Below, in pieces: positions 1 through 55,577 of a stretch of DNA of 64,000 nt. Below the pieces are notes generated by a model, which was given only the letters and a program-made list of their open reading frames with translations, had not been told where the DNA came from and made no database searches. Source of the stretch: Paraglomus brasilianum (lineage: Eukaryota). Location of the stretch: NCBI GenBank assembly GCA_910592345.1, contig CAJVPI010000012.1:1-64000 (forward strand), given 5' to 3'. A program made the translations under genes and the position numbers. Within the stretch, counting starts at the first letter, position 1, and each line of letters starts with the position of its first letter.

Positions 1-688
1 AAAAACTTCTGGTAGTATACTATTGGCATAAAGCTTACCAGTAACTGTATGCCCTTTTTTCACTACAATTCGTGCTATAACCCCATCTACGGTATAAAAT
101 ATACAAAACATTCTTTTTTTTTGAATTTTGCGCCGTTCTCACAATTTGTGGCCTGTTCTTCCCTTTTTCTATCCAAACCTTATTCGCTTCCTTACTTGAA
201 ACTGTAAAGAAATATATCCATGTTTCGTCCCCAGTTATAATATTATTGTATCCTTCTTTTAAAGTTTCCAATAGTTGTTTAGAAACTTCTACTCGTAGCC
301 GCTTATTGTCCTCCGAAAGCTTATGAGGAACCCATTTTGCACAGACTTTGTGAAAGTCCAGTTCATTGCGCAAAATATGGGTAATTCTTTCACGGGAAAT
401 ACCTACCTGAGTAGCCAATTCCGTGGTAGTAATATGAGGGTCGTCATTAACAAGTTCGTCGACTTTGGCAATTTTTTCTGACGTCACCGCTTCGCGAGGG
501 CGTCCAGAACGAGCCTTGTCAGAAACACTCTCATCTCCGTCCTTGAATGTACGAATCCAGCGTTGAATTGTGCGAAGTGATAGTGCATCTTCCCCTTCTG
601 CATTGACTAACTCGTCGTGAATCTGAGTTGGCTCCCGACCGTTCTTCCATGAAACATAAATGTAGTATCGTTGCTGTTCATAGCTCAT
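1..688 (-). CDS. mariner transposase (HTH region, WVPHKL linker, first catalytic D); one +1 frameshift in a homopolymer at 114-122
   Basis: Motifs RSGRP, KVCAKWVPHKL and IITGDETWIYFF. Removing one base from the 9-T run restores ...SKKRMFCIFYTVDGVIARIVVKKGHTVTGKLYANSILPEVF to the window edge. Likely ATG at 688. Confidence 0.85.
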
Positions 689-878
689 TTTTGTCCAGTT
701 GCTTTTGTATAGGGTTTTCAAAAATCTATTTCTCGAGAATGGTCAAATGAATTTTTATAATCTTTTTTTTCTTTTATTCCTCGAAACGTTGCGCAACGTT
801 GGATTACCTCCATTTTTGGATCGGTCAGCTGATCATTGACATATGACCCCGGCGACAAAACTTTTCAGCACCCCCACG
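1..878 (-). mobile_element. mariner (Tc1/mariner superfamily) DNA transposon, 5' part; runs off the window start
   Basis: Transposase motifs below. The terminal sequence read on the minus strand is TA|CGTGGGGGTGCTGAAAAGTTTTGTCGCC (851-878, TA at 879-880), which resembles a mariner TIR plus TA target site. The other end lies outside the window. Confidence 0.85.
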
Positions 879-11010: not shown

Positions 11011-11230
11011 ATATTAATATTAAAAGTCTTCTTTCTATTCTACCAGAGCAGTGCGAGAGTCAACAGGGTAGTCGGTCTATTTAAGATGAAGCACATGCGT
11101 GTTTGCACATATGAAAACGCCCACAAAGTAGCGAGTCTCTTTTCCACATAAGATTTATACCACTTGGGAACTTCGGGGTGATTATAACAACCATCATGAG
11201 TTTAACCACCCGATTCCCATATGCAACTAC

Positions 11231-11458
11231 ATCCCTCTTGCGACAAAACCTGTTAGCAAACACAAATACCTTCTCTAATTTATACTCTCACTCGCACTCG
11301 CTTTTCATATATCAAAAATGTCATCTCTCCGACGAAATACAACTTCATCACAACCCTCCATTAAGGCTGGCCCTGCCGCTCAAGAACTGATCGACCCAAC
11401 GCGGCGCTCACGCCGACAACGAAACTCTGGCCGCATACCTCGATCTAATAACGAATGG
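11231..11458 (+). pseudogene. truncated inverted paralog of the HMG gene (5' UTR plus N-terminal codons to NNEW)
   Basis: Aligns by eye to the reverse complement of 14928-15197. It has indels, no intact start context, and ends just before an A9 run. Confidence 0.9.
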
Positions 11459-14315
11459 TAAAAAAAAAGTTACAAATTTCTCTCAAAAACGTCTTGTTAG
11501 CAAATTTAGAAAACACGAAAGTAAACATGAATTGGTCCAATGTTGAATAACAACGATAGTAACAGGCTCTTGTTCTTGGAGAACATCAGGACATCGAAAT
11601 CAACGTTTGATATTTAACTCATTGACTATCACTATTAGATGAACACGTTGAAAACTAAAATTATCTTTTGCTAATTACAAATTAGCCAGTCATTGTAAAG
11701 TATATATTCTTTTCCCTTACCTTCAGCAATATCCATTAGGTGGTTCACCAACCTTGTGAAAATCGCTATCGACTCCAATCAACACGAACATGGCACTGTT
11801 TTCAATGCCACGCTAATAATCCGGCGCTATATGCTGAAATTATGCCGAGTCCATGTAGCTAGCGAGCTCTATGTTGGGAGAAAATTATTTGTAGCTGTCA
11901 ATGAATAACAAATAAAATTAGAAAATGGTACAGTACAAACATACTAATGGCGACAACGGTTATTATAATATACCTTACGTAGACCCGTACGTTTTTTCTT
12001 TCGCCGTAAATTGTCGCTGGGTACAAAGTGCATCCATTTTCTTCTGTCAGTATCCTTCAAATTCTATTAGTAGACGTGTAAAATGAATACCAATGGCGAC
12101 AACGATTGATTGTGACATCAGGCAAGTAAGTATATTGTTTGTTCCATAAAATAGATATGAAACATTAGGACGAAATTATCACAATTGCACGCATAGTTAA
12201 TAATAAATCGATTAAATTTGCATAGCCTTATTCAACGATTCATTCTATATGCCAATACGAACAGTAATACTAGTAGTATACGGTACGGTATTGATATAGT
12301 TAATACTCAATCACTAAATCAAATACGATAATAAAATGGCAGTAAATGCTTACATGGACTCTCGTTAAGACGCTTCAAAGATAAAAAGTCTCAGATCTGT
12401 GAATCAAAAATGAGACCTAGAAGGTTTACGCGTATTCGTTTATAATCCATATTAACGAATAGAATCTTCTTTCATCGATTTTCAACGACTACTATAACAA
12501 ACAGACTGGTATGTGAATAGCACTTTTTCGTAACTTTGTTTGCATTCGGTTAATGGTTCGTAAAAGATACCTCAATACGCCCGCTTGCAAGACATTTTTT
12601 ATAAAAGTCTGTTACTTGATGTATAATTGAATTGCTCCAAGTTCTTTAGCTTGCAATACAGAGGGTGGGTTTGAGCTCATTTTCATACGGTCACTCGCTC
12701 CTGCCATTTTTGTAGGTTACCCGATCTTTATTGTACAATATGAAATTCTTCCCGCTGGTTCTCATAACTCTATAGACCATGGGAAAAGTTTCTTCGGAAT
12801 ACAAGCCGTCAACCGAGGATGTTGGAAAAAGGTAACTCGCACATACTTAAACGTCTACTGAATCTGTTGCTTATTATTATGTTACCCGGACGCCAATTTT
12901 ATTATATACGACATGTTGATGTTAAATATACAAGTATCGCTCACCATGGTACTTATTGGTTTGTTACACAAGATACTTGTAAAGTACCAAGGTACAGCGT
13001 TTATGCCTTTGATTAGTATGTCCCCCATACACATTCCTAAAACCCCTCGACTTCTTCGGCAGCCGGCTCATAATAATAATGCTCTCCTTCAAATATCTAC
13101 AAGAAACCATCTTTTCTTGTTGGATTAATCAATGTAATGTTATGTTAGTATCATCTAATCTCTCACCAACTCATCATCCAAACATTCGGGTGCGCCCCCG
13201 ACAAGTCCCCTTCCCCCATCAATTTCATCCCACGCCTTTTTTTACCAATCGGAAACTGTACACAAGAGGTTCACCTGCAGCAGTCAACTGTAAGTAATCG
13301 TTAGAGCATACTCATTTCCGGATATATCCCCATTCATTATTATATCGTAAGACTTCATATTATTCAGTAGACATTTGATAAATGTGCAGTGTCAAAAAAA
13401 GACTCTGAGTCTACTAAGTTGCAACGCCGAGTCTTCTTGGTTGACAGTACGTACTGCAGTACTTTTTGTAACAACTTTTCTGTGCAAACAAACGTCTCTT
13501 TGAGGAACATTCCCGAGTACAATTTTGTCGTCACATCGCGTGTGGCTTGCATGCACTAATACTAATTCGTAACGAGTGGGCATTGATAATCATAACAGGA
13601 ATTACCATTGTGAAATAGAGACACTGTGATTGGATCCTTTTTCTTCTGGGTACATTGATATACTACAGCGGGGGGAGGGTATAAGTAGAGTACTACGCAA
13701 AGTACAATATTAATAATAACAACTAAAATTTATAGGTTTTAGTATACAGTTGTAATGTATTTTCGTCATTTTAATGAATAAACAGTCCCAACTGAAAGTC
13801 GGTTACCGCTTGAATACAATTAATTGCAAATATGCTAGCATACACAAGTTATCGGCGTAGCCCGAAATATCTACAAATTAAATATATTGTCCGTGGTGCT
13901 AACGTTGACAATTACGGAAGAGAAGAACGCATTGTCGTAGAGGAGGAGAAGCTACGATTTGTTCAAACATACGGTATGGGCATTAATTATTAGCAACTTA
14001 ATACTTATAGCGTAATGTTGTTCTTTATTTAGTCACGCTTGAAAGATAGAGTATTTTGTCTAGGTAATATGTATGAACAAGGTTTTTGTTCTTGACTATA
14101 TAGATGGCACATATGTCTGCCCCTGTAAATATATCCGATTACGTTAATCCGTACGTTCTTGTAAGTGTAATTAAAGAACCAAAGTCTCAAAAAAGCAACC
14201 ACGAGTTTGACTACTTCATAATACTACTTTTTTTTATGGTTGATCGAACATTTGCGACTTAGTAATTGCTACTGTAAAAAAGGCTAATCCTCATGCCGTA
14301 CAGATAAACTTTCGC

Positions 14316-15122
14316 CTAATAACTCGGTTCAAATTGTCTACTACTGCCATCGAACCACAAATTGTTGACGTAGCCATAATTATCGTACGGAAGTAAATAT
14401 ACTGGATCCATTTCTATGTAATTTGGTTCGTCAAAATAGACCAATCCTTCTGGGGGCAATTCCACCTCCACCTTTACGTCTTCACCCATTTCGCAAGTGG
14501 GGCTTTCCACTTCCACTTTTACGTCCTCCTCCTTATTATCATTCTTCACATCATCGTTCTCTTGCCACTCTCTAAACCCATCAAAGAAAATAAATCCCCC
14601 GCCCCCTTCGCTTTTGCATTTGTTTTGCTTCTTCGTCTTCTTCTCCCGAGGCTCGTATTTATAATTGGGATACTTCTTCCGATGTACTATTCTCGCCAAT
14701 TCGGCAAGTATCTTGAAGAACTGCTTAACACGCGGCTCTTCGTTCTCCCAGCGTGTCTTTGCTTCTTTTGAATAAATCTTTAACGTATCCCTTGTACGAC
14801 GGGAGCGCCGCACGGCTTTGTTGTTCGGTTTAGTTATAGACGATGCTGCTTCTTCCTCTTCCTCCTGTTTTATCGGCGCTTCTTCTTCCAATTTCTTGGC
14901 TGCATCTAGGTTCCTTCTATACATGATCCATTCGTTATTGGATCGTGGTATGCGATTAGAGTTTCTCTGTCGACGTGAGCGCCGCGTTGGGTCTATGAGC
15001 TCCTGAAGCGGAAGTGCCAGCCTCAGTGGAGGGTTGTGAAGAAGGTACTGTATTTCGTCGGAGAGAATATTTTTTTCCGTAATAAACAAGTGAGTTTGTT
15101 CATCAAACAGTTTGGATGACAT
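14316..15122 (-). CDS. MATA-type HMG-box transcription factor, intron-less
   Basis: RIPRSNNEWIMYRR ... SKEAKTRWENEEPRVKQFFKILAELARIVHRKKYPNYKYEPR, plus the N-terminal PP..L.L.ELI.P motif seen in AM-fungal HMG expansions. Confidence 0.92.
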   Translation of the reverse strand: MSSKLFDEQTHLFITEKNILSDEIQYLLHNPPLRLALPLQELIDPTRRSRRQRNSNRIPRSNNEWIMYRRNLDAAKKLEEEAPIKQEEEEEAASSITKPNNKAVRRSRRTRDTLKIYSKEAKTRWENEEPRVKQFFKILAELARIVHRKKYPNYKYEPREKKTKKQNKCKSEGGGGFIFFDGFREWQENDDVKNDNKEEDVKVEVESPTCEMGEDVKVEVELPPEGLVYFDEPNYIEMDPVYLLPYDNYGYVNNLWFDGSSRQFEPSY

Positions 15123-15767: not shown

Positions 15768-18700
15768 TCTCGTGACTTCCGGGAGTTCTGAAATTAAAAT
15801 TACTTGTGGCACACAAAACTTTTGATGATTACGTCATACATAAAATATTGATTCTTTGTTAAGCCATTGGAACTAATCAGTCTAAAGTTGTCACTCGCTG
15901 CACTTGCTGTCTCGAGCTATCATCAAGTCACGCCATCAACAAAGAACTTGACAATCTGTTAGGCATAAAAATAGTATATTATTTATTTTTATTTATTTAT
16001 TATTTATTTATTTATAATTTGCTTAAATGGATCCCCTGAGGTTAAGGTACCACAACATACATATCCGTGGGTATAAATCACGGGACAGCAAAAAAATTTG
16101 TAACCTGTTTAAGTTTAATTATTATCATGCAAGTAATTACTCCCTGAAATGTCTTTATCATTATTGGTGCAACTGTATTCGCAATCTAGAATAAATCCAT
16201 CGATAACGCCATTTTTAATCACGTATTTCCACATGCAGTCGGTCTGTGTCATAAGTAATCGACAAAATTAAACGGTGTAATAACGGGTAGAGTTTACAGT
16301 AAAAAAGCTATCGCTAAAGCGTAATACTAAAAGCTAATACTAAAACCGTTTACTAGTGCAAACAAAGTTATAAATTATGCTGTACGCAAAACTGCACGAA
16401 ATGACTATATAAACTCAACATATATCCCGAATATACCATGTATGTATGCCTGAGCTATACACCGGGTATACACGTGGTAAACTCAAATACGTTTCGATGT
16501 TTAATATCTTTTGATCTGTGCACGCTATTCTTTGTCTCCGTAAAGCATGGTAATTTTGTTTCTTATTATAGTCAGATAGGCATTGCTATTTCTGCTGACA
16601 TACGCAAATTAGATGTGACTCCATTAAATCTTTAATAGCCTTTACCTGTAAAATTAGCCATACTACCGAACTTGCAGATTATCTAAACAAAAGTCTCTAT
16701 GCATAAAATATAGGTAGGCACATGTAACAATTGTTGGACAACGCGATAAACGGCCATCGAATTAGCCCTTGCATAATTTATTCTTGTTGACCCAAACTGC
16801 TCACAAACGAATCTTATGTCGGAGATCATTCTGTGTGATGGCATGACAGGGTGCATAAAACTTTGTCCGTGAGATAATAATCACGTTCAATATAAATTCA
16901 GTCTATCAGGCGTAGAATAAGTATCTGGTGATCAACAGCCTTCTTACACTGCATGAATGTATTCTATTCCGGCATATTTGGCCTTGTTGGCCAAAATTAG
17001 ACAATGAACTTTGCAATTGACACGAAAAGAAGTTTAGTATTTGGCGCTTATTAAGAAGGCGTGTTTTGTTACACGTTTAGTGTATTGGCTTGACTTTGTC
17101 ATATTCATAGTTTTCCTTATGTTAGATATGTACAAAAAAATTTTCGATACTTGGTCTTACCAAATAAGTGTACGGGGTTATTCAGTTGCAATACGATTAT
17201 CAGAAAGAATGTTAGACGCAGCATACAGCAAAAGTGGCCGAAATTATTATACTATATTCGCGGAATTTCCTACGTAGTAATAATAGTACTAATACTTGTA
17301 ATTTTATAGAACCCAAATATAGCTTAATTGCCGACTTTTTTATCAACTTTTTGTAGCAAAATATCTTTATGCTCTTGTTACTATCATTACATCACAGATG
17401 TCTCGCGTTTAAGCCATTTACCAAGTTTTTGAGCGCAAACAAGCATTACGCCTTTTAATACTTTTGACCTTAAACTTGTGTGGGGTACTAAAACGTTTGT
17501 CGATGCTATGCAAAAATAGAGCTGATTAATCGTTCGCAACGTTTCAGGAATGAATTTTATTTCGCCGTTCTCGATAAACTATTTTTTGAAAAATCCAACC
17601 AAACAAAATGAGCCACAAACGACAGCGATAATACTGTACGTTTACGTCTCGGTAGGAATGTCGGGAGCCAACTCGGGTTCGCAGGAGACAAGCACTATCT
17701 CAACGCACGATTTAAAGTTGGATTTTCATACATTCAACGAATAGATATGAAAGCATTCGTGTGAAGCAGTGACGTAAAAACTTTGCCAAAGTCGATAACT
17801 TTATCAACACTGACCCTCATATTTACTACCACAGAAAATGGCTAGTCAAGTAAGTGTTTCCCGTATAAGCTTTATGCAAATAGTATAGTGCCAAAAGTAT
17901 TTTCAAACGCTATGGACAAAAAATGTTCAGATGTCATGTTTTACTATAACAATGCTACTCTACATAAGTCAGCAAGTATCCTCAAAAGTAACAGATAACA
18001 CTCCTTTTAATAATGTAGGGTTATTCAGACAGACTATCTCAAAAGTTGACTATGAAAGTTCTTCCAGAGTTGGCAGGATTGTCTGCAAAATTGCACATAT
18101 GTATGGGGGCTACTTTGAGGAAATCAAATAGTTTTTTAAATAGTTGTATTTAGAATCATCAAAATAAAGAATTGAGAACAAATCTTTTCAGCACTTCCAC
18201 GTATTCTAGAGTAAACTTGCCGTTCCAAACAAAGTATGCATAGGTTCGATAACATAAGTCACAAATTAGTTGTTAGTTATTGTATGCAAAACTGTACCAG
18301 TATTCCAAACCCAAAAGTATAATGGATAAGAGACGACCGCTGAGACATGTATTTGACCGATTTTCAGTATACAAACTGATACTAAAACTCTAAAAAGCCG
18401 TTAGCTTTATTAAAAGCTCCAAATCCCTTAATATTAAGACGACGGGCCATTCTTATTATTATTGTAGTCCTGTAAAGTATTACGCTTTAACTACTTTTGA
18501 ACGCGTTCGCCCTTGCAATTATTCACAGTTTTGTTAATTAAGGTGTTCGTCCAACTTCCATAGATTATGAACATAATTTAAAATTACAATATCATTTTCG
18601 AAATAGTCAGACGCGTCGAAAGTCTATATTAGTAATATACAGTAGACAAATGTGAAACGCCTTTGTAAGTTCATCAAAGTGAGACAGCATGGAAATTTTT

Positions 18701-19282
18701 TGTGCTACTATATGTTACAACCCCTTGTCTCAAGAATTTATAATTTCGTCCATTCCTATTTGAAATTCTCAAACAAATTCCGAACCAAAAGCATATGGTG
18801 TGCAAACATCACCCCGAAGGTTATAATTACAACCTGTTTATCAGAAATATAGACCAGTTTGTCTGGAACAATTCCATTATTGAGACCATGAATTGGAATT
18901 TACACAAAAATCCCTTGTCAATCGAATAGGAATTTTTTTATTTTTGGAAGTCATTGTCTGCCGTATTACTGTTGTACCTCAGTTGGAGTTCTGGACCGAT
19001 TCTGGACCAAGCGTCTGGGTTTGGAACTGAGACAATTGAGTTCTAGACTGATTGAGGTTCTGAACTGAGACAGGTCCCCAACTCAGACACAACATTTTTA
19101 CTATGCACGGAACAATACTGTTTGAATGTACGTGTCGAAAACAATGATGGAAGTACATTATTTCTATAAAGCCGCAGTTCAGCGAAGTCACAGTATATAT
19201 GGGGCATGCTGCAACAAAACCAGACAAAGACTATGTGAGTTAAAATGGTTGGTGTGGCCGAAAAATTAGCCAGTGACTGATA

Positions 19283-19309: not shown

Positions 19310-19457
19310 GGTTAAGACATAAATTTGGAGACTATCTTATAGCAAATACGACTGAAATTTAACTTTATTTTAATTAAAACTGCACAGATAATTATGAAAA
19401 ATTAGGATTATATCTATATAAAAATATTAATATGAAACTCATTTACATTAATTCACC

Positions 19458-19790
19458 ATGGAACCAAAGAATTACAGTACAATTAGAAGTATTTTAAAGA
19501 AAGCTCAAGGAGAAAAAATTGCTACATATATTTTTAAAATCAATGATACCAAAATCCTCGAGAAATATCTAGATAAACTTATGAAATCTATCAAGAAGAA
19601 CGAAAAATAAAAAAATATATTAACAACAACTTATGATGAACCAAGAAAGAAACGGAAATATAAAGCAAAGAATTTAAATAATTATTTTCTTTTTATCAGG
19701 AGTATTATTTGACGAATAGCAAGAGCAATATTAGTATCAGAATTCTATATTCTAATCTCATATAATTTACTTATTTTTTTGAAAAATAAA
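19458..19790 (+). pseudogene. decayed small AT-rich ORF with a hydrophobic C-terminal segment, code-4 compatible
   Basis: MEPKNYSTIRSILKKAQGEKIATYIFK..., then in shifted frames YINNNL(TGA)(TGA)TKKETE and IIIFFLSGVLF. Confidence 0.35.
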
Positions 19791-20396
19791 AGTCTGAAAT
19801 TTTTCCTTAGCTTTTTCTTTCTGTTTTTTAGGTAAAGCTGGTAATTCTTTGGTTGCTAAATAATCTCTTCTGCCTATTTCTTGATCTTTATTTAACAAAC
19901 TGTTTTCTAATCACTTTATTCGATCTATAAGCCTGCCTATTTCAGCATTGTGCTTTAACACTGTTTCAGGCATTTGGCGCTTTCTTCGCCTCACAGCTGC
20001 ATTCCAGTGCTTTCTCGCTCAATTTCCACTTCATTTTTTAACTTGCTTCTAATTCTTCTTTTTCTCAGTAAGTAAAACTAAAACTTTTTGTGCTTCCTTA
20101 CCGAAACTTTTAACAGTATTTTCCGGAGTAAATCCCTCATTAAAAATAACTTTTCCAATTTCAAGTCCATTCTTTTCTGGGTAGCTTACTCAACCCTTGT
20201 CAGGTCAAGTAAATCTTTCTAAAGTTCTTAAAGTAGTACCAGTATATTCTGAACTTTCAGTAAGGCTGTGAACAGCATTTCAAATTCTTAGTTTAAAGTT
20301 CTCTTCTTTATCTGCTAATTGTTTCTTTAACTTTTCATTTTCTTCTAATGATTCTTTATTTCTCTGTTCGAGTTCTGTTATTATTATGTTTGCCAT
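19767..20396 (-). pseudogene. MRE-like hypothetical protein (code 4), frameshifted
   Basis: From ATG 20396, 115 codons run to TAG at 20049-20051 with three TGA and no TAA/TAG (..FKLRI*NAVHS..ERFT*PDKG*VSYPEK..). The shifted C-terminus reads RIK*LENS..KELPALPKKQKEKAKEKFQ. Confidence 0.65.
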
Positions 20397-20591: not shown

Positions 20592-22232
20592 TTAGTCTAA
20601 ATTGCCAGTATAGGTTGGTCTTTGACAAGTAATATCCTTGAATTCATCTCTAACAAATGGGCGGGTATTATGATAAAGATATTCTTACCTTTTACAATCC
20701 AAAGGAGGAGGAGTTAGTACGAGGATGGAAAAGAATTTAATTTCTTAGTAATTTCAGAAACACTTGCTTTTCTAGTTTTTAACAAATTAAATTTAGTATA
20801 AGCACCATTAGCAATCAGCTGAGCTTTGACAACTCCAGGTTGAGCTGCTTCAAATAGAAAATGCTGATATTTTTGTAAACCATTCAATTTCTTAAAGAAA
20901 ATTCCCAACACAGAATTAAGATCTAAGTATTGAAAGCCTTTTCCATTGTCGTAGCACTGAGCTTTGTTTAATCCTGCTGTACTTGATTTTTTCATAACGA
21001 TCCACGCAATCTACTGTTGTCTTTCTATAGAGTTTTTTAATCAATCCATCACACTTGAATTTAGTATGTCCGGGTACCATGAAATTCAATGGTTTCATAA
21101 TAACCACAAATTATTAAATACAGGTAAAATCAAATGGTAGCATTATTTTTATTCTGACCACCCGCGTTATCGCAGGTTTAAATTTTTTTCGCCTTTATTC
21201 AATCTCTTAATTCCATCGAATACCATGCTCAGCGTTTGCCATTAGGACCTTTGCCGATAACATCAAGAACGTAATTAATTTGTTCGCGTACTGCTTTATC
21301 TTGAATACTTGTTGGTCGAATGGGGCACGTAAACGTTTTGCGCTCAATCGTAACTGTAACAATAATTAGCTTTACCTCTTGTTATAAAATGCTCATCTAC
21401 CAATTTCCTCTGCTGTTCTGCTAATTTCGTATTTTTGTTGTGATAATTTCTCTCTAATTTAACCTTAACTAAATGTTCTTTGAATTTTTTCAGTAAGTCT
21501 CTCGCTTCTTCTTTCTTACGAGCATTATACTGTAAGCCACTCCGAAAATGTTGGCACGTGTCACATAAATCCGTTCGTGGACTCATAATTTGAATATAAG
21601 GTGTTAATTGGTACCATAACTTGCGGAATGCATCATATTTTAACAATTCTAAACTGCTATCGTTTTTGATACCTGCAATAAAATTACGATAAACCGATTT
21701 GTAACTCGTTTTAGCTGGTAAAAGCGTAAGCAATTGAGTAATGCGATTAACATTTCTACCAGGACTTGGTAACCCATGAATTTCAGCATGGTTTTCGAGA
21801 AAATTTTTTACGGCGATAGCAACGGTTATATCAACGGCACTTTTTTTACATTACCATGAACGCGCGGTATTATACCATTCGTCGCTAGGTAATTTCTGAC
21901 GTTTTCGAAATGGGTACGACCAATTCCTAACATATTTTGATACGTTTTCTGACAAAGAGGCGCATTGCAATCTCAGTAGTAAAACGTTCTTTATTAGTAC
22001 GCGCTTTCTTTTTAAGACGTCGGCTGGTAGTTATTTCTCCACCATTCATTGCTTTCAGCTGGGCCATTAAAAATATACCTTGTTCGGATCTAGAGAGAGC
22101 TTGGAACGCCTCACGTAATTCGGCAAACCTTTCTCTCGGCACCTTTTCTGAGCAACCACATTTGCAACCTAATTCCAAGAAACGTATAGCTTTTTCATAT
22201 TCAGTCGAACCATTATAATTGTAATTTTCCAT
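20592..22232 (-). pseudogene. Sola-like DDD transposase, intron-less, TGA at predicted Trp sites, several frameshifts and deletions
   Basis: Motifs CKCGC, PRVHGN, FLENHAEIHGLPSPGR, FRKLW..PRTDLCDTC, SYD(TGA)AQNV, GKGPN, CDNAGGQNKNNATI(TGA)FYL, FMVPGHTKFKCDG, YQHFLF and RPFV..EFKDITC. Confidence 0.7.
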
Positions 22233-23537
22233 ATACGGGTAATCCTATATATTAGTTTTATCAAGTTTATATTTTATACTCTTTTATTAAAGCCCTATAT
22301 ATATTGTATATATTTTTCTTATCACTTTGTATTAATTCAGTATTTTTGAGCCTCCAAGAAATGTATGGTCTGAAATTTTATTATTGTTTTTATGCTAATT
22401 ACGTCAGAGAATTGACTTGTCATTAAACAATTTTAGCACCATATATTTACTTTGGTATAAAGTCATTAATGTAACAAAAGACAATCTCTCTCATCTGCAT
22501 TGCACGATATCTTACCATGTCGCTTATCTCGACGAAAGCATCGTTATGGTAACGGTGAAGAAAGTAGAAAGGTTTTATGTATTCCGCCCTCTCTAAGACA
22601 ATTGGATATGTTATGTCACGTGATACAAGAATCGGCGGCGGGCTGCGACGTAGGAGTAAGTCCACTTATTTTAATTGATTGGCACATGGTTAATGGTTAC
22701 TATTACTATTAAGCATGCTTTTTATTGGCTAGAAGGGCAGCGATGTTAGCACTTGTATCACATGAGTGCTAGGGAGAGTTCTCGCGTAGTACTAGCCTCG
22801 CGCCTTTCGTTGACAGGTATCGTTTACGCGAAAGAACGGTCGCTTCCTGAATTTACCTGCTTCTACTCCTGTCTTTGTCCTTTCAACTCTGTTGCCTGTG
22901 TTTTCTCGCAATTTTTGTGTCCACGGTATCAACGCGCCTATTGCATTTTTCGTGCCTCTGCCTGTTCTGTTCGGTACGTCTCACACCCTGTTACTAATTT
23001 CGACGTTCTCTACGATCATGATCTCCTCCCACACTCGAACTGTTATCAATTAGCATTTTTCATACGCTCATATTTTTTCCAGTATCTTCACAGTTACTTT
23101 AGAAGGCATCATACATTATCCAATACCTGAAATGCAGCTTTCTCCTGAATGTCGCAACTCCATAAACTTTTCAGGTGACTGTTGTTTTTCTTCCGATCAG
23201 TTTATAGGCTGTTGGTTTTAACTTCTAAATTCAAAATATAGATTTTTGGGAAAGTATCGATGAGCCGTCTCTACAAAAATTTTTGGTTTTTCGCCTTTCT
23301 GCTGGTGATTTGAATGATGAGTCTGAAGAACATCACCGATACATTACTGAACTGAAAACCATCAAGAAATATTATGCTGAAGCCTCTGAAATGGGTAGAA
23401 ATATTTCTAAATGGATAAATCGGTTTAAGGTAAATGTTTATTTAAGTGCTTTGGGCCGTCGTTACAACCTGAGTACACTGACTACCCTGCAGAGTGCGTC
23501 TTTGTAGTGGGAATCGGTGCGTCCTCTCTGGGAATCG

Positions 23538-23820
23538 GACGTCTCATTACGTCTTTGAAAAAGTGCAAATAGTGCAATTGCAATTTGATATGAAGGTAAA
23601 TGGATGCATTCTTGAATACGTTCAAGATCACGGTCCACTCGTTCGAGTAAGAAACCAGTTCAGACTGAGAATCAATCGCTCTGGACTGAGGGCTATTTTC
23701 TATATACGAATGGTAAGTATATCTTCGCTTCGCATGCATTTTTGCATGTTCGAAATGGCAATAACTAAGTTAAAATGTTATTAATACCTACTTGGCAAAA
23801 TTTCAAGGGCTAGAATTTAA
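23538..23820 (-). repeat. inverted copy of the IKS1 upstream region, exon 1 and intron 1 (source 56431-56752)
   Basis: Long near-identical blocks. The ATG context is deleted and the donor GTACGT is changed to GAACGT. Confidence 0.92.
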
Positions 23821-23827
23821 CGCATAC

Positions 23828-24321
23828 TACACAGTCAGCCTCGATAAGCCGGCCAACAGGAGCTGGTTCTGGATGGCCGGCTTATCGAGGCGACCGGTTT
23901 ATTGAGACCCACGGGATACAAGATATTTAATTACACAATTTAAATTAAATTATTATTGTACATGATACTGCTCTAATCGTATGATCTAATGATATAATGC
24001 TGCTCTAATCATATAATTATAATGTAGTGACATGTATCTTGGATTAATCGTATGACTGTAGCGCTTTGATTGTTGATTGCAATACATTTTAGTGATTTGA
24101 TTTATATATCGGTTCGGATTATACGATTTAATAACGATATATATATAACATGTTTATTTTAAACGAATGATAATTGCCGTACAAGTTGTGATCAACCAGT
24201 TAAATTTGACAAACACTGTCACATATTAAAAAATCACGTGGACCGGCTTATCGAGGTACATTCAACTAAGACCCGGCTGGAGCTGTTGGCCGGCTTACAG
24301 CTTATCGAGGCTGACTGTGTA
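23828..24321. mobile_element. MITE, pogo/Tigger-type
   Basis: Perfect inverted ends tacacagtcagcctcgataagc / gcttatcgaggctgactgtgta, with internal ccggcttatcgagg subrepeats. Confidence 0.88.
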
Positions 24322-25849
24322 TTACTATTACGGCGTATTGATTAACATTAACAACTCATTGCCTCTACTCTCTTTGAAATCTTAGTTCCACGAAATCAGA
24401 AACCATTATCTTCCAGTGACTCTTAACTAGAATTAAAATAAGCAGCCTAAGAGCTCAATAGACGCATAAGTAAAGACAGGCACATTGTTTTGGTGTTATT
24501 TCCAGATATATTTTATTTTAGCACGAAAGACAAATATTTATGATGATATCACAAGATATATCCCTTGTGCCATTTAAATGAGCCAAAAGCAAAAGACATT
24601 GTTAAAGAATTTGTGGTTGAAAGATTTTCATTCAAGATATGATAAGGTAAGTATTACCATATTTTTTTCTTTACTCAAATCGCATTTATTTTATTTCAAT
24701 AAACACACATATTAATATGCGTGAAGCTTACAACGAAAATAGCAACAATCGCCATAATTGTCGATTAAAAAGCATTGATCGATTAAGCATTATAGAGCAA
24801 GATTTGTAATTGACCCACACCAACGAAAATCATATAGTCTAGTGACCTATAATAAAGGCCACATATAATCTCATATATCTTCTGCTTAATTTGTTTTCAT
24901 CGTGATTGATTGATTGATGATCAAGCAATTATGGCTGAGACGTTCAGAATATTCGATCTTCCTACACTTGAAATATGTTTCATCTCACGACACAGACCTG
25001 GCTATCTGGAGAAGAGTTGTTAAACGTAAAACCCAAATTGTAAAAACGATTGTGGCATGGTAAGTCGTAGGGTAAGTAAGCTGTTATAATATGGTATTGT
25101 TCAAGACTATGCAATACTAACGGAAATGTCAAAATATCAACATGGTTAGAGTATTGTTACGAGTATTAGTATGTAACCCTTTGCTTATAACTGCGCGCTA
25201 ATGTTTATTATTTAATGGTTATTTTTACCTTTCTAAACAAGTGTTTAATTATCGATACAACAGTATAACAGGCTGTATAATATTGTAAATGTCAACAAAC
25301 GAACAATTAATACGAACAATTATCGGAAGCCGACAATAGCAATTGTAATAAGTATCAGATAATAGTATTGTTTATTACAGTCTTAATTGTATGACTACTG
25401 TACTGAATATGTGCGGTTAACGTTTGTCATAATAATATATCAGCGTAAGTATGGTTCATTCGTTGACTTAGTATAAAGCGTATTCAGAAAAAAGTTGGAT
25501 ACTATGGAAAGTAAGCATTTCCAACTGGTGTAAAAATGATTGATTATGAGCAATATCTTTATCCTATTGTATGTTGTCCTTGCTATCACGCGTACGTGAC
25601 ATCATTATTAAATTACGACAATTAAGTCTTTCGCCAAACACAGTTTGTAGCAGTCGCTGTTATTATTATGTTTGAATACGTAAGGCAAAAAGTATTCTCT
25701 ACGTTACGATGGTTATGTAACATGTTTTGAGATTTACGCACCTTGCAATTGCATTATTAGCGTACTCATCGATGTCAAGCTCCAAAATAAGATTTTCTTT
25801 TATATTTGCTTGCAAACACGGAATGTATCAATGCAGTACCGGCGAAACG

Positions 25850-26030
25850 CTGTCACCTCACGCAATTACTCTCGATAGTATACTCCAGTTCTGCAAAAGT
25901 TTGGCTTCTCTGATACGACTTTGTTCTGATTCTGCCACAAGTCAGATATTTTCTTATCTTGACAAATCATTCGTATTCCATATCAATAGTAGTTTTATCT
26001 AAGCATGTTTTCTTCAAAATAAATTTCGCC
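25850..26030 (-). mobile_element. possible pogo/Tigger transposase N-terminal remnant
   Basis: Fragments LDKTTI..KYL..SRIREAK/FAELEY resemble the psq/CENP-B HTH region; heavily decayed. Confidence 0.3.
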
Positions 26031-27313
26031 AGAAAAAATCCCGATCATATGGCATCGTCAATACATTAGCGTAATGGCGCTTAAGTGTTTAAACGAATAA
26101 TTAATTGATTGGATATGAGCCATGCGATGAAATTTTGAGTAAAGCTATTTTTTACACAAAGTGTCAATGCGTTGTTGTGTCGCGTCATGTGTCGATTTTG
26201 CAGCGGAGTTTCTTTTTCGCATACTCCTGATTCGCGTCATATGACTGATGCGGATGAAACCAATTCCATTTGCAATTATTGTAACACGCATTGGATGTCT
26301 CGCTCGTTCACTCGTAGCATTCAAACTGTTTATCGAGTTCTCATGGTAATCATGGTAACGTGCTGTTCCGATTACTCATAGACAGAATCCTTTTCGTATT
26401 CATATTAACATAGTGATAGTTTTCCGCAGTGACCCAGGATCACGTCGCTAAGAAATTGTGGGTTCACAATCCATATTAATTTGTAATTTGCATGTGATCG
26501 GTGGAGATTCTATTTCAGAACCACAGAATGTGGCACGGCGAATTAACTTCTACAACTTATTTTGTGTAATGCTAAACAGAAGATAATAATAATGTGCAAA
26601 AATGTATATTGTCATACCCATCAAAAAAAAGCTGAGTCAGCTGTTTGGTGGATAAAATTGTTATTCTAAGCTTGGAAATAAAGCATTCCGTACAATTGAG
26701 TTTAGAAGATTTAATAAACAAGCCATCAAGGCGGATCCAAGCAATGGAACCGCTATTTATATTGACTCTCCCATTATGGGAGTGATCTTCGTTATATAAA
26801 AGAGGGAGAGAAAGAGCTTTATTGTTTAGTTCCTTGAATATATCCATAATATTTAGCACTGTCTCCTATAATCGAGTATTTATCCGCCGCTTCACCGCGT
26901 TATTCCGCTTTTCCCGTAATAATTTCATTATCACGGTTATTTAGGTTTATTTTTAAGTAAGTATTAGTATAGATTTTTTGATTTATTATTATGACCAATA
27001 ATAAACATGTATTTCTGGACGGTATTATTCCAGCCGGATTATTCAAGAGTTTGCAGATCACGGCGGATAAATTGACATTCACCTACATAGAATTTACGCT
27101 AACTGGTTCTGTGGTGTGTTTCGCTGCATATTTATTATTTACACAGATTTACCACGACTGATAATCAATCATGATCACCCGTGACACATGTGACAATTCA
27201 CTTCGTTAAAATAAATAACCTGTTAGATCATCGACACAAACAAAAACTCATCGGAGAAATATTTAAATATTTAAATATCTATCACTACACTCTCCAACCC
27301 ATCCGAAGCAATA

Positions 27314-29613
27314 ATGACAAAGTTGTACACAAACGAAGAAGTTGCTCAACACAACACTGAATCCTCGATGTGGATTATTGTCCACGACAAGGTTTATGAT
27401 GTCACTAATTTCCTCAATGAACACCCTGGTGGCAAGAAAGTCTTGATCAAAGTAGCCGGTACCGATGCGTCGAAACAATTCGACAATTTCCACAACAAAA
27501 GCGTTCTGGAAAAGTACAGTCCCCAACTATATATCGGGGACATCGGCAGCTCTGCTCAAGAAGACGACGCAGTACATGGTTCGGATGAGGGTCCATTCGG
27601 TGATATGGTTCCATTTGGTGATCCTTATTGGTATCAGGACTTCTATAGCCCATACTACAATGATTCGCATCGAAGATTGAGAGCTATAGTAAGGAAGTTT
27701 ACTGATACTGAGATTATGCCTTACTGCTTTGAATGGGATGAGGCAAAGAAAGTTCCAAAGGAATTGTTTGCAAAATTCGCCCAAGTTGGTTTATTACCTA
27801 GTGTCTGCGGTGCACCATGGCCAAAAGAGTATGTATGAGTGAAGATCGTATTCAATTAATCATTCCCTGGTCCATAAATCGAGAGAGTCATTCTAGAGAG
27901 AGAAAAAAGAAACAACGAAGCCATCAATCCCGCATACTTTTGAAATAATCTAAGATAGGGTGGCGTGTCTAATACACTGGCGCATTAGTAGTTTATCGAC
28001 TCAAATTTTCCCAAAACTTTCGAATTTCATTGCCCATGAATATTTCGACATTGCCTCCTCTATACACAATAACATTCTATTGTCCATTATCATTTTTTCC
28101 CCCATATAGCTACACGGATATAGCTCCTGCCGCAGGTATCGCGCCTGAAGATTTTGATGGATTCCATGAATTGATTGTTTGCGATGAAGTCGGTCGATGC
28201 GGATCTGGTGGCTTACTGTGGGGTCTCATGGGTGGTAAGTGATAACAAAACGTTCAAATAGCGATGAGATTTATTATTCCATTACGAGTGATTTTCAATG
28301 ACTGCTCCTAAACTATTCCAATATGCATTTTCTTATAAGGCCTTGGCATTGGTCTTCCACCGGTTCTGAAGTTTGCTCCCGAGGAACTGAAACAGCGCAT
28401 TGCTCCAGACTGTTTAGCCGGACGCAAGTTCATCTGTCTTGCGATTACTGAACCCTACGCTGGTTCGGATGTCGCGAGCATCAAAACCGAGGCCAAACTT
28501 ACCGATGACGGAAAACACTATATTGTCAACGGTGAGAAGAAATGGATCACCAACGGTGTCTTTGCTGACTACTTTACCACTGCAGTAAGGACAGGCGGTC
28601 CAGGCATGGGAGGTGTCAGTTTGTTGCTAATTGAGAGGACTATGCCCGGTGTCAAGACTAGGCAGATGCAGTGCACCGGTGTATGGAGTTCTGGAACAGC
28701 ATACATTACGTTTGAAGATGTTAAGGTGCCAAAGGAAAATTTGGTCGGAAAAGAAAATGGCGGATTTAAGGTAAAGAATAGTTGAGGGATTGCCTGCTAG
28801 TTTCCGAGAAGATTTATAATAGATTTATTATTTCCGTTCAAAATCAGCTTTTTTGATTTTTGTTAACCCATTACCATCATCTCTTCCATTTCGTTTCGAT
28901 CACACCAGTGTATAATGCATAACTTTAACCATGAGCGTATGGGTCTTGCAATGCAAGCAAGCAGATTTGCTCGTGTATGTTATGAGGAATCACTAAAATA
29001 CGCCAGCAAACGGCGCACGTTTGGCAAAAAGCTCATCGAACACCCAGTGATCCGCAACAAACTTGCACACATGGTTAGGCAGATCGAAGCTACACATGCG
29101 TTAATGGAGTCTTTGATTTATCAGACGAATAGGCTGCATGGAACGGAGGCTGCAAACAGATTGGGTGGCCCGATCGCTTTGTTAAAGGCGCAAGCAACGC
29201 AGACATTCGAGTATTGCGCACGAGAAGCAGCCCAAATTTTTGGTGGATTGTCGTATTCGCGTGGAGGGTATGTTTATGAAGGAAGAGAGATAGAGGTTTC
29301 GTTAGCAATAAGAGAGATGGCAAATGCATACACGTAGCACTCTCAAAGATTGTTTTCATGGTGTTTGATGGTGTTTGATGCTATTTGATGGTGTTTGATG
29401 GTGTTTGATGGTGTTTAGATCAACTCTATTAATTCACTTTTTGAAAAAAAATTTTCAATTTTTTTTTTCATTTACAGACAAGGCGAAAAAGTCGAAAGAC
29501 TCTACAGAGAAGTCCGTGCATATGCAATTCCTGGTGGTTCTGAAGAAATCATGCTTGATCTTGGTATCAGACAGTCAGTCAAGGTTGCTCAGCTTTATGG
29601 AGCTAAGCTATGA
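27314..29613 (+). CDS. cytochrome b5-acyl-CoA dehydrogenase fusion, 5 exons
   Basis: b5 motif VYDVTNFLNEHPGG. ACAD motifs CLAITEPYAGSDVA, VNGEKKWITNG, NFNHER, REAAQIFGG and YAIPGGSEEIMLDL. Stop at 29611-29613. Confidence 0.95.
29358..29416. repeat. 10-bp minisatellite (atggtgtttg) x ~6 in the last ACAD intron
   Basis: Directly visible tandem array with one variant unit. Confidence 0.9.
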
Positions 29614-30008
29614 ACAGAATGTAACCTTGTAAGAGGAACTCATATATGCAACTATCGAAATTTTTATTCTACAGTGATTTCTGCCTGAATCGAATAAGTG
29701 ATGTATGTCTCTCTTCTAAGATTATGCGTAAATCTTTTCTGGTTACGAATTTATTGTCCCAAAGAGCTTAGTAATAGATCATGTGTCCTTAAAGGGGTTT
29801 ACAATTTTGGTATAGTAAATAAACCGTTAAAGTCTTCCTTTTTTTTACTACTTGCTGGTAACTAAACTGCAAACGAATGGGGAAAGAAGATTCTCTCTCG
29901 ACCGTAAATAAAGGCGATGGAATGCATTCGTAAAATTCTTATAAACAAATCGATCCGATATCTCAATTAATGTCCAAGTCTTTCTCCATCCTTATTAACC
30001 ATCCAAGG

Positions 30009-52626: not shown

Positions 52627-55577
52627 ATGAATAACACTGCGAAAATATTCGTTCAACCTTGTTCATTATCTACGTCTGTCGCATCTAATTTATTCAGTGC
52701 GCACGTATATGTTCCAACGGAAGGCATTTATGCATATCCCCATAAATTACAAGTAGAATTATGGTCCACCCTAACGTCTCCAGACTGGAACGCCGTAGCT
52801 TTCCAGGAAGACACAAAACGACAAGTATTCGGTCGCTCTAATGGCACTAAATTTCGTGTATTCAAGTTAGAATATCCTTTGGATAACATCAAACCTGGAT
52901 GGTATGAGTTTACATATCGCATAAGGACGTCAGCCACACCATATGCCGACTGGACGTGGCTGAATGAGCATGGAGGATGCAACGGTCGATTATACGTGAC
53001 TGGTCAGAGTGATGGACTCGACATTAAATCAAGCGAATTGAGTGATGTGTTTTATGAAGTACAGGCACCAGACGATCAATATAGCGCATCAGATGCGAAG
53101 ATTTGGTACGTTAGAGCAAATGCAGAGTGGAATAATGGACAACCAAGTTACGTCGATTATGGACAGATTAAAAACGCTATCAGATATTTGGGAATACAAC
53201 GAGCAGCGTAAGTTAAATTTTATTATCTCAATTTTAATGATCGGTTTCTTTCCATCGTCCAAGTTATACTCATTCTATTGTTTTCCATAGCACCCATTGG
53301 CTCACACCTTTGACAGGAATCAACCACCCAAACATAAAACACAATGATATCCAGTATCTTCTCGTCCAGCAAGCATCGGGTCATTATGTTGTCTTCATAC
53401 CAATGACACTAGATCACTGTTCTTCGTCTCTGCGGTCAGATGACGAGGGTCGTTTGAAATTGAAAATACTCAACGAGAAGGGAGAAGATAGCAGTATTGG
53501 ATTGGTCATTGGTCGTGGATACGATCCGTACACACTCACTAAGACTTGCATGGAATACGTGAAGAGAATACTCGGGCGTAATTCGGAAACGAAGACGGCG
53601 CATGCCAAAGGACATGAGGAGTTGTTTTACTACGATAAATTGGGTTATTGTACTTGGGATGCGTAAGTACCAGTAATCATGTTTGGTAAGTATGCATACA
53701 ACACATCAGCCTTAACATTGGATTTGCTGTTCTATTCGCTAGTTTTCGCGAAAAGGTGAACAGAGATGATTTATTTGCAGCACTACAATCATTGCAGAAT
53801 GAACACGTCCCAGTAGGATTTGTTATTCTCGATGATGGATGGCAGCAGACATCTCCGGGAAGACAACTAAGAGGATTCGAAGCAGATCTTACCAAGTTTC
53901 CAGGCGGATTAAAAGAATTGGTGACGGTTGCCAAAGAACGATTTCCATCACTGGAACATTTTGGGATATGGTAATGTTCAGCATGTTGTCTAACGTCTCG
54001 TTAGACCAGCAGTTATTTTAGCTTGGCTTCATCTTATTTATGTCTCTACCCTATCTTTTCTTTCCCTAGGCACACTATCTGGGGTTACTGGAATGGCATA
54101 GAACTTCCTTCCAAACTTCCACATCTTTACAAAATGCAATCAGTCACTCTTTCCTCCACAGACATTCATCAGTCAACGACAGCAAGTCTGGTCACTGCTG
54201 AAGACGTTGAACTTTTCTATTCCGACTTTTATTCTTTCCTATCCGCACAGGGCATCAATCTTGTCAAAGTCGATGCGCAAGCTAGTTTCGATCTCATATC
54301 TGCAGAAGGGAGAGAACACCGTTTATTATGGAGAGATTATCAAATCGCTCTAGATAAAAGTTGCAAGGAGCACATGAAGAGGGAACAGATGATTTATTGT
54401 ATGGCAATGGACCCGAAAACAATATTCTTTTTGCTAAAGGGGGACGAAAAAGAGATGAATAATAAAAAATGTCAGAAAGTGCTTAGGTTGGTAAAGATGG
54501 ATTCGACCGTATTATGGTTTACAAACATAAACTACAATTTACACTTCAAATAGGAATAGTGATGATTTCTCGCCCAACTCTGATTCTCACGGATGGCACG
54601 TGTACGTGAACACTCTCAATAACTTATGGACGAGTACGTTTGACATTATTCCAGATTGGTAATAGTTAATTACATATAACGTATTAATATATTTTACCGC
54701 TTATGAGCGACTGAACTCAATTATTTACAATACACTTAGGGACATGTTTCAATCAAACCACGAGTTTGGTGCATTCCATGGTGCATCACGGGCAATAAGT
54801 GGAGGACCCATTTACATTACGGATCCTCCAAATAAACACAATACATCGGTACTTAGAGCACTGATTGCAAAGACAAAGCACTCCCATCGGATTCTCCGGT
54901 GCGACCATCCAGCTCTACCCAGTCCCTCTTGTATATTTGAAGATGTGACGAAGACAGATAGATTACTCAAGACTTCTAATACGAATGGTTCGGTCGGAGT
55001 TCTTGGACTATTTAATTGCAGACCAACGGAACAATTGGATACGTTCAGTTTATCCGATGTTCCGGGCTTGGCAAAGCCACAGACGACTGCTGACGATCAG
55101 AGCAACGATTACGCCCTATTCCTATTTAACGATCGTTCGGTACACCATATCTCCAGTCACCAAAGTCTGTCCATATTTCTTCCTCCAAATTCGTTTGAAC
55201 TAGTGACGTTCGCACCAATCGCTTCCCACAAGTCCTTCCAAATATCTTGCTTCGGCCTCATCGACAAATACAATGGATCACGTGCTATAATAAACGCTGG
55301 TTTTCACACCGATTTCGCCAACATCAGTCATCGAAAAAAGAAGATTCTTGTGTATAGGATAGTATTGGCGGCATATGGCGAGCTGGGTTTATACTTGGAA
55401 TCGCCGAATTTGAGCAGAGGAAGCAGATTTAAGGTTTTCCTGGGAAGTAAAATGATGAAGGAGGGTGATGTTGTATTTGACTATGAAAGTGGGTTCTTGA
55501 AAATTATAATAGATGATGGGAACGCGAATGAGAATGATGCAGAGAGTATTGAAGTGTTTCTACAGATTTTAGTATAA
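52627..55577 (+). CDS. Sip1/raffinose-synthase-like glycoside hydrolase family 36, multi-exon
   Basis: LGYCTWDA, VILDDGWQ, W|HTIWGYWNG, VKVDAQ, RNSDDF, PDW|DMFQS.H..GAFHGASRAISGGPIYITD. Confidence 0.92.

Follow-up and report, generated by a model that had tools for sequence, protein, structure and literature searches.

We lean towards reading the transposase gene at 20592..22232 (minus strand) of the window, by which we mean the whole 64,000-nucleotide stretch of Paraglomus brasilianum DNA analysed here, as a dead nuclear copy of a two-code, Sola-like cut-and-paste transposon family that likely shuttles between fungal nuclei and MRE, the uncultured Mollicutes endobacteria found inside these fungi. 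This relic points to a real family that is widespread; its architecture is well supported, and its endobacterial stage is likely. The transposase is under purifying selection in translation table 4 (code 4), which reads TGA as Trp. The copies have common termini, their cargo genes contain GT-AG introns and use only TGG for Trp, and the elements are inserted beside eukaryotic DNA. The joining of standard-code, intron-bearing cargo and a code-4 transposase in one element is very probably real.

The transposase relic and its code-4 relatives

The window copy runs on the minus strand from an ATG at 22232 to a TAA at 20594-20592. By alignment to an intact relative, it is the decayed gene of a code-4, Sola-like DDD transposase of about 585 aa when intact. 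In a global alignment with the intact relative L003, 1450 of 1639 aligned bases are identical (88.5%). Compared with L003, the window copy shows nine frameshifting indels and three in-frame deletions, has lost 131 bases and has gained a stop at codon 559 through a CAA>TAA change. It is a pseudogene, a dead relic in fungal chromosomal DNA. The ordered set of transposase motifs listed in an earlier note on this DNA, which was made from the letters alone, was recovered completely and in the same order, yet split among three reading frames. The same note had pointed to three TGA codons at sites where an aromatic residue or Trp would fit, at 21130, 21344 and 21973, and to one retained TGG. The alignment to L003 reproduces both observations: TGA stands at the conserved Trp sites W87 (21975-21973), W311 (21346-21344) and W402 (21132-21130), all of which are TGA in L003 as well, TGG is kept at W214, and a deletion has removed the codon of W135.

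The spectrum of substitutions between the window copy and L003 is symmetrical, with 35 G>A, 37 C>T, 34 A>G and 38 T>C, and at the observed G>A rate the chance of three of four TGG codons changing to TGA in the window is low (p ~0.004). Hypermutation, which the earlier note had set against its own reading in case the nearest relatives should carry TGG, is out as the source of the TGA codons, since the intact relatives share them and neither the spectrum nor this probability agrees with it. The TGA codons of the window were almost certainly inherited from a family selected in code 4 and did not arise by mutation.

The relatives were obtained from a scan of JGI metagenomes, and the best 80 of 133 confirmed relatives (the L loci) were used; clustering them at 98% nucleotide identity gives 57 groups. 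One or more of the conserved Trp sites are occupied by TGA in all of these best 80 of 133, and 60 of the 80 are covered by a single uninterrupted HSP. The five conserved Trp sites of the same set contain 211 TGA, 155 TGG and 2 CGA codons, with neither TAG nor TAA, and TGA and TGG replace each other within clades at these sites in the manner of synonymous codons. The transposase genes are intact under translation table 4, a property expected of an MRE insertion sequence or of MRE-derived DNA. The transposase family is under purifying selection in code 4, with a median dN/dS of 0.096 among 17 full-length copies (49 of 136 pairs passed the filter of dS between 0.05 and 1.2). In place of the one-off, partly recoded gene supposed in the earlier note, there is a large family that is still selected in code 4 and whose members carry intron-bearing nuclear cargo. 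Some contigs are mosaic: L016 equals L017 at the left (98.7%) and L020 at the right, so that the apparent intactness of some metagenome contigs may be a consensus of many young copies. An identical 334-bp spacer between two elements standing tail to head occurs in L016 (5504-5837) and L020 (6745-7078); it may mean that one locus was assembled two times, that the elements form a tandem array or that a circular form exists.

An intact relative matches DUF7869 in a Pfam search. The residues D310, D389 and D431 recur in 90% or more of the 104 sequences that were aligned and, judging by their position, constitute the putative DDD catalytic triad. The AlphaFold2 model of L003, which was based on the 104-sequence alignment, has a mean pLDDT of 91.5. 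Its top Foldseek matches are IstA (E 2e-4), TnsB and retroviral integrases, with low whole-chain TM values of 0.17-0.23, and the predicted structure agrees with an RNase H-like transposase/integrase fold.

A profile search returned 6260 relatives of the transposase. The named relatives in the ten clusters that were looked up belong to a sponge, a clam and Gigaspora and to two bacterial MAG entries on short contigs; a Rhizophagus homologue (P0029) shares 38% identity. Distant Sola-like homologues from Desulfobulbaceae and Thermodesulfobacteriota MAGs, located on contigs of 2-6 kb, are found in the P0172 cluster and are either bacterial copies or binning contamination. The midpoint-rooted tree comprised 74 rows: 54 were database proteins of our own choice, 19 came from the loci and one was the read-through of the window copy. 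The code-4 clade, which includes the window copy, has 100% SH-aLRT support and is followed outward by sister fragments, Rhizophagus and Gigaspora proteins and, outermost, animal proteins. The eukaryotic, Sola-like origin assumed in the earlier note is upheld by this topology: the code-4 clade is nested within the Sola-like proteins that arbuscular mycorrhizal fungi possess, and the sponge and clam homologues branch outside.

The sister group of the code-4 clade consists of P0031, P0035, P0042, P0170, P0173 and P0178, and also P0186 and P0227. Its named members lie on small contigs of the Ambispora leptoticha and Racocetra persica assemblies, for both of which MRE contigs are listed in the available part of PMC11423566 (Table S1). 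These sequences are good candidates for MRE-resident relatives. The copies of a 33-member cluster are located on mostly long contigs (39-236 kb), and their frames open right after the W135 position. The P0007 and P0009 clusters count 37 members, most of which lie on contigs 37-236 kb long. Several members are open from just past W135 to the end; perhaps the clusters reflect a burst of insertion in one genome. In P0072, a gene model from Dentiscutata, the frame continues across four of the Trp sites. There may therefore be TGG-rich copies, which leaves room for their nuclear activity.

Termini, passengers and cargo of the element

The earlier note reported no convincing terminal inverted repeats, which is wrong for one end. 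A terminus beginning with GGGGC, the outer end of a terminal inverted repeat, lies at 19201..19229 on the plus strand and is conserved in the relatives. It is adjoined by ATAT at 19197..19200 (plus strand), the candidate target-site 4-mer; the other end is missing in the window. Besides position 19201 of the window, the conserved terminus gave 12 matches in 10 of the best 80 of 133 relatives. Across loci the same terminus flanks the transposase on both sides, and the inverted repeat of L016 is about 430 bp long at 93%. The 4-mer before the full termini (n=12, with the window included and L016 and L020 sharing theirs) is ATAT in 10 cases, ATTT in one and ACTT in one. AWWT is found at 11 of these 12 termini, each element being seen with its flank on one side only. 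Contigs from RNA runs part from L013 right past the terminus and show loose ends in all four runs, as is expected from many insertion sites.

The segment 19201-22293 of the window is collinear with L016. The gene order in the relatives is terminus, start of c5, cargo, transposase, c1, c3, c5 and terminus, and the window retains the right terminus, c5, the first codons of c3, c1 and the transposase. The AT-rich leader common to intact copies is present at 22233..22293 (minus strand), where the family similarity stops. No left or second terminus and no cargo remnant was recognisable in the window, and the region 22281-30000 gave no tblastx match to the loci. In L017, terminus, cargo and transposase are all located on one contig. 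At L058, L065, L078 and L007 a copy of a sub-terminal repeat motif stands directly before the transposase ATG, which suggests an older compact left end or a site of transposase autoregulation. Left of the terminus in the window, the plus-strand frames 17492-17845 and 18542-19243 are open only under code 4; they match neither Pfam nor the loci and may be due to chance.

Sola2 termini follow a 5'-GRG rule, and the GGG of the present element fits it. In the available parts of PMC10741241 and PMC3627910, Sola elements are described with terminal inverted repeats of 11-1124 bp, a size of 2-9 kb and a 4-bp AT-rich target, and Sola1-3 are reported from Rhizophagus irregularis in those of PMC5751038 and PMC11075540. 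The element shares the DDD transposase with them, and its inverted repeats, size and candidate AT-rich 4-bp target are in the Sola range. Set beside these partial descriptions, and compared with Sola2 by description only, it fits Sola and Sola2 best (candidate AWWT target). It differs from Sola in that its transposase and two passengers are read only in code 4 and have a bacterial-looking layout, and in that it also bears standard-code, intron-bearing cargo.

The passenger gene c1 is present in the window at 19767..20396 (minus strand) as a decayed code-4 coiled-coil gene. Compared with c1 of L016, 557 of 629 bases are identical, four of six in-frame TGA codons are kept, one is replaced by CGA and one is deleted, and there are five deletions and one insertion. 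Only the first codons of c3 remain at 19700..19761 (minus strand), the remainder having been deleted; the ATG stands 5 nt past the c1 stop, and the start matches that of c3 in L016. The intact c3 product is Cys-rich and contains a coiled coil. The c5 remnant (19432..19658, plus strand) reads inward from the terminus, lies partly in the long repeat, contains one frameshift and shares 54-88% amino acid identity with the c5 ORFs of nine loci. Each c1 and c3 gene has 2-9 TGA codons, the TGA:TGG counts being 61:16 in c1 and 34:5 in c3. In 8 of 10 loci examined c3 starts 1-13 nt past the c1 stop, a spacing that resembles a bacterial operon. The dN/dS is 0.25 for c3 (17 of 55 pairs) and 0.42 and 0.64 for c1 (12 of 28 and 8 of 28 pairs). 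Database searches revealed no named bacterial homologue of c1 or c3, and PHROGs and NCBIfam gave coiled-coil noise only for the passengers, so that the label "MRE-like" rests on the code, the operon spacing and the ecology. The claim of the earlier note that the transposase returned with bacterial neighbours stands in part: the neighbours are code-4 genes, but they are passengers within the element's own terminal repeats.

At least six unrelated types of cargo gene are located directly upstream of the transposase in the same orientation. The cargo varies by locus and includes kinases, NTPase-like and nuclease-like proteins. Its Pfam matches are to kinase, DUF6826, PD-(D/E)XK and AAA-ATPase-like models and, weakly, to STAND; no Crinkler model matched. 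The cargo may be Crinkler-like, CRN proteins combining an N-terminal header with nuclease, NTPase or kinase domains. GT-AG introns were read by eye in the cargo of L017, L003, L060, L064 and L037. In 25 cargo ORFs, which were not de-duplicated, 133 TGG and 11 in-frame TGA codons were counted. All 11 fall within the first 14 codons or the last 30; the early ones lie in read-through intron sequence, and the late ones are likely stops. The dN/dS of cargo was measurable in one pair (0.083), and in none of 21 pairs of c2 and none of 10 pairs of c7. CpG depletion of the transposase tracks that of the cargo (rho 0.58, p 0.009, 19 loci, three clades only). In one clade the CpG values are 0.05-0.13 for the transposase and 0.12-0.29 for the cargo, and in the clade of the window they are 1.2-1.5. 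The GC3 of the transposase does not track that of the cargo (rho 0.37, p 0.12).

Copies and flanks in fungal DNA, and the search of bacterial DNA

The window is eukaryotic nuclear DNA, most likely from a fungus. Its short, exon-like ORFs match arrestin, an acyl-CoA dehydrogenase that is broken into pieces, ribosomal L11, cupin, raffinose synthase and protein kinases of fungi. On its right side, L013 is flanked by sequence for the C-terminal end of a Tc1-like transposase, whose best match in the PDB is Sleeping Beauty (E 0.0017). Gene models of Geosiphon, Ambispora, Diversispora, Funneliformis, Gigaspora and Glomus fuse pieces of cargo, transposase and c1/c3 in the order that is found in the metagenome relatives. 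The contigs that bear several of these models measure 69 kb to 0.9 Mb, and in some models the Trp sites of the transposase are skipped by splicing or end the frame. In small shares of four RNA or presumed-RNA runs, the transposase, c1, c3 and the terminus are covered by short, divergent and partly deleted contigs, and most of the L013 cargo is uncovered.

Several further features of the window were recorded. A split host gene for a beta-lactamase-fold hydrolase is located at 46409-48015 (minus strand), a raffinose-synthase-like host gene at 54023-55577 (plus strand) and the N-terminal part of a Tc1/mariner-type transposase at 35-721 (minus strand). The ORF at 14316-15122 (minus strand) has no Pfam match and presumably, by its motif, encodes an HMG-box protein; a decayed, partial look-alike stands on the opposite strand at 11103-11816 (plus strand). 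Nested inverted repeats at 23825-24324, with 25-nt arms at 96% and an 18-nt perfect hairpin, are MITE-like.

No copy of the element was recovered from GTDB contigs in two pattern-limited scans of a collection that may not include MRE genomes, nor from IMG/VR, plasmid and phage collections, where the contig scans were likewise pattern-limited. The name of MRE is absent from the 52 full-length matches and cluster members that were read, most of these records carrying no name. Among named MRE proteins, in collections of uncertain MRE content, no homologue of the passengers was found. In the portions of the sources that were available, MRE genes are annotated with table 4 and include host-derived ones (PMC10507103), and MRE contain many transposases and mobile elements (PMC4916391).

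The proposed shuttle and its alternatives

The transposase requires TGA to be read as Trp and the cargo requires splicing, and MRE are code-4 cells inside these fungi; from this combination we infer a shuttle. The translator of the transposase is probably MRE, and we are somewhat inclined to believe that the element lineage truly cycles through nuclei. In the first step promoters of bacterial type would drive the expression of the transposase and of the c1-c3 operon in an MRE-resident element. Bacterial lysis in the shared cytoplasm would then free transposase-bound element DNA, or the transposase would act in trans, and the element DNA would insert in nuclei at AT-rich 4-mers. In the nucleus the transposase gene would be silent, being stopped by its TGA codons, and the copies would decay; the cargo would be spliced and translated there. 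Occasional re-uptake of a nuclear copy by MRE, sometimes with a newly captured host gene, would give rise to a new subfamily.

We tentatively consider that the shuttle may be obligate and trans-kingdom, that is, mobilised only by endobacterial translation, landing in nuclei, capturing intron-bearing effector-like genes and carried between distant soil fungi by MRE that switch hosts. Host switching is among the MRE traits, next to table 4, host-derived genes and many transposases, that the available parts of PMC10507103, PMC4916391 and PMC11423566 cover between them, and the role of MRE is described as experimentally untested in that of PMC12306442. If this is true, the endobacteria are a vector for fungus-to-fungus gene transfer, and there is a concrete mechanism by which DNA could pass in both directions between the endobacteria and their hosts, the arbuscular mycorrhizal fungi and related ones. 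The shuttle predicts that new insertions depend on the presence of MRE, and it would account for a class of fungal gene models in which the TGA codons are wrongly annotated as spliced out.

Traffic in one direction only is an unlikely but serious alternative. The active lineage would then live wholly in MRE as an insertion sequence, with the host genes as inert passengers and the nuclear copies dead on arrival. This agrees with the fact that all measured transposase selection is under code 4, with the broken state of the window copy and the fungal gene models, and with the many mobile elements (PMC4916391) and host-derived genes (PMC10507103) which the accessible sections of these papers describe in MRE. 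However, at least six unrelated cargo types sit in the same place and orientation, and the cargo has kept its introns clean and its Trp codons as TGG throughout, in contrast to c1 and c3 with their drift to TGA, which is hard to explain for long-resident passengers in an AT-biased code-4 genome. The frequent exchange of cargo with intact introns and the parallel CpG depletion of transposase and cargo in one clade, out of only three compared, also argue against purely one-way traffic.

The shuttle is also to be weighed against a purely nuclear element, for which the fungus would decode UGA as Trp, whether through readthrough, through editing of the mRNA or through a change in its nuclear code. 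We regard this as improbable, because TGA seems to serve the cargo of the same element only as a stop and nowhere internally and because c1 and c3 combine many TGA codons with operon-like spacing. The codon context for programmed readthrough is CUA or CAR, and it was found at none of 45 TGA codons. An element-borne suppressor tRNA was considered and rejected, as no tRNA gene occurs in the window or in the 45 of 80 loci that were scanned. What speaks for a nuclear element is that every interpretable flank looks eukaryotic, that the 33-member cluster on 39-236 kb contigs starts just past W135, and that the two GTDB pattern scans returned no bacterial copy.

Slightly less credible still is translation of the transposase in fungal mitochondria, with movement of the elements between mitochondrial and nuclear DNA. 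NCBI table 4 does cover mould mitochondria, and the layout is AT-rich, intronless and operon-like, but the ORF clusters and flanks that were examined contain no recognisable mitochondrial gene, and we know of no such element from fungal mitochondrial genomes. That cargo and transposase were linked only through misassembly of nuclear repeats with bacterial ones, as the mosaic overlaps among L016, L017 and L020 might suggest, is very improbable: the same order recurs in many independent metagenomes and on long contigs of fungal assemblies, and in the window the terminus, c5, c3, c1 and the transposase are collinear within eukaryotic DNA. A relic of an ordinary fungal transposon, with its TGA codons derived from TGG by mutation, would suit the heavy decay of the window copy and can practically be dismissed, given the same TGA codons in intact, selected relatives, the symmetrical spectrum and the lack of TAG at the Trp sites in the best 80 of 133 relatives.

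The proposed shuttle has partial counterparts among known systems. In Agrobacterium T-DNA transfer, the mobilising machinery is located in the bacterium and the cargo is expressed in the eukaryotic nucleus; the transfer is one-way and uses type IV secretion. Mobilisation expressed in the bacterium and cargo expressed in the nucleus are what we propose for the present element, which, unlike T-DNA, is a DDD transposon that originated in eukaryotes and bears cargo derived from the host. MRE, or Ca. Moeniiplasma, are comparable in that they have received kinases and further genes from fungi, carry many transposases and use code 4, but the available parts of PMC10507103 and PMC4916391 give accounts of single transferred genes and not of a code-4-active eukaryotic transposon that inserts into nuclear DNA. 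A two-code, two-compartment mobile element was not found described in the literature covered, which included the available parts of PMC13443276, PMC11291939 and PMC10386755 and did not extend to the original Sola paper, the two MRE genome papers of 2015, the 2016 MRE mobile-element paper or the Diversispora epigaea genome paper, in which MRE-like transposases in host DNA may already be mentioned. Sola2-Fanzor1 of Dictyostelium and Polysphondylium, as the available part of PMC3627910 describes it, is likewise of Sola2 type, with exchangeable cargo and ATAT, AAAT and ATTT targets; it differs in that all its genes use the host nuclear code and its repeats are short (12-21 bp).

At L065 an ORF on the minus strand (3-911), upstream of the code-4 transposase, shows a D...TS...C4 zinc finger...RD pattern. 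It has no match in Pfam, PHROGs or NCBIfam. The pattern is that of Fanzor/TnpB in the available part of PMC3627910, and the ORF is possibly a Fanzor beside or within the element.
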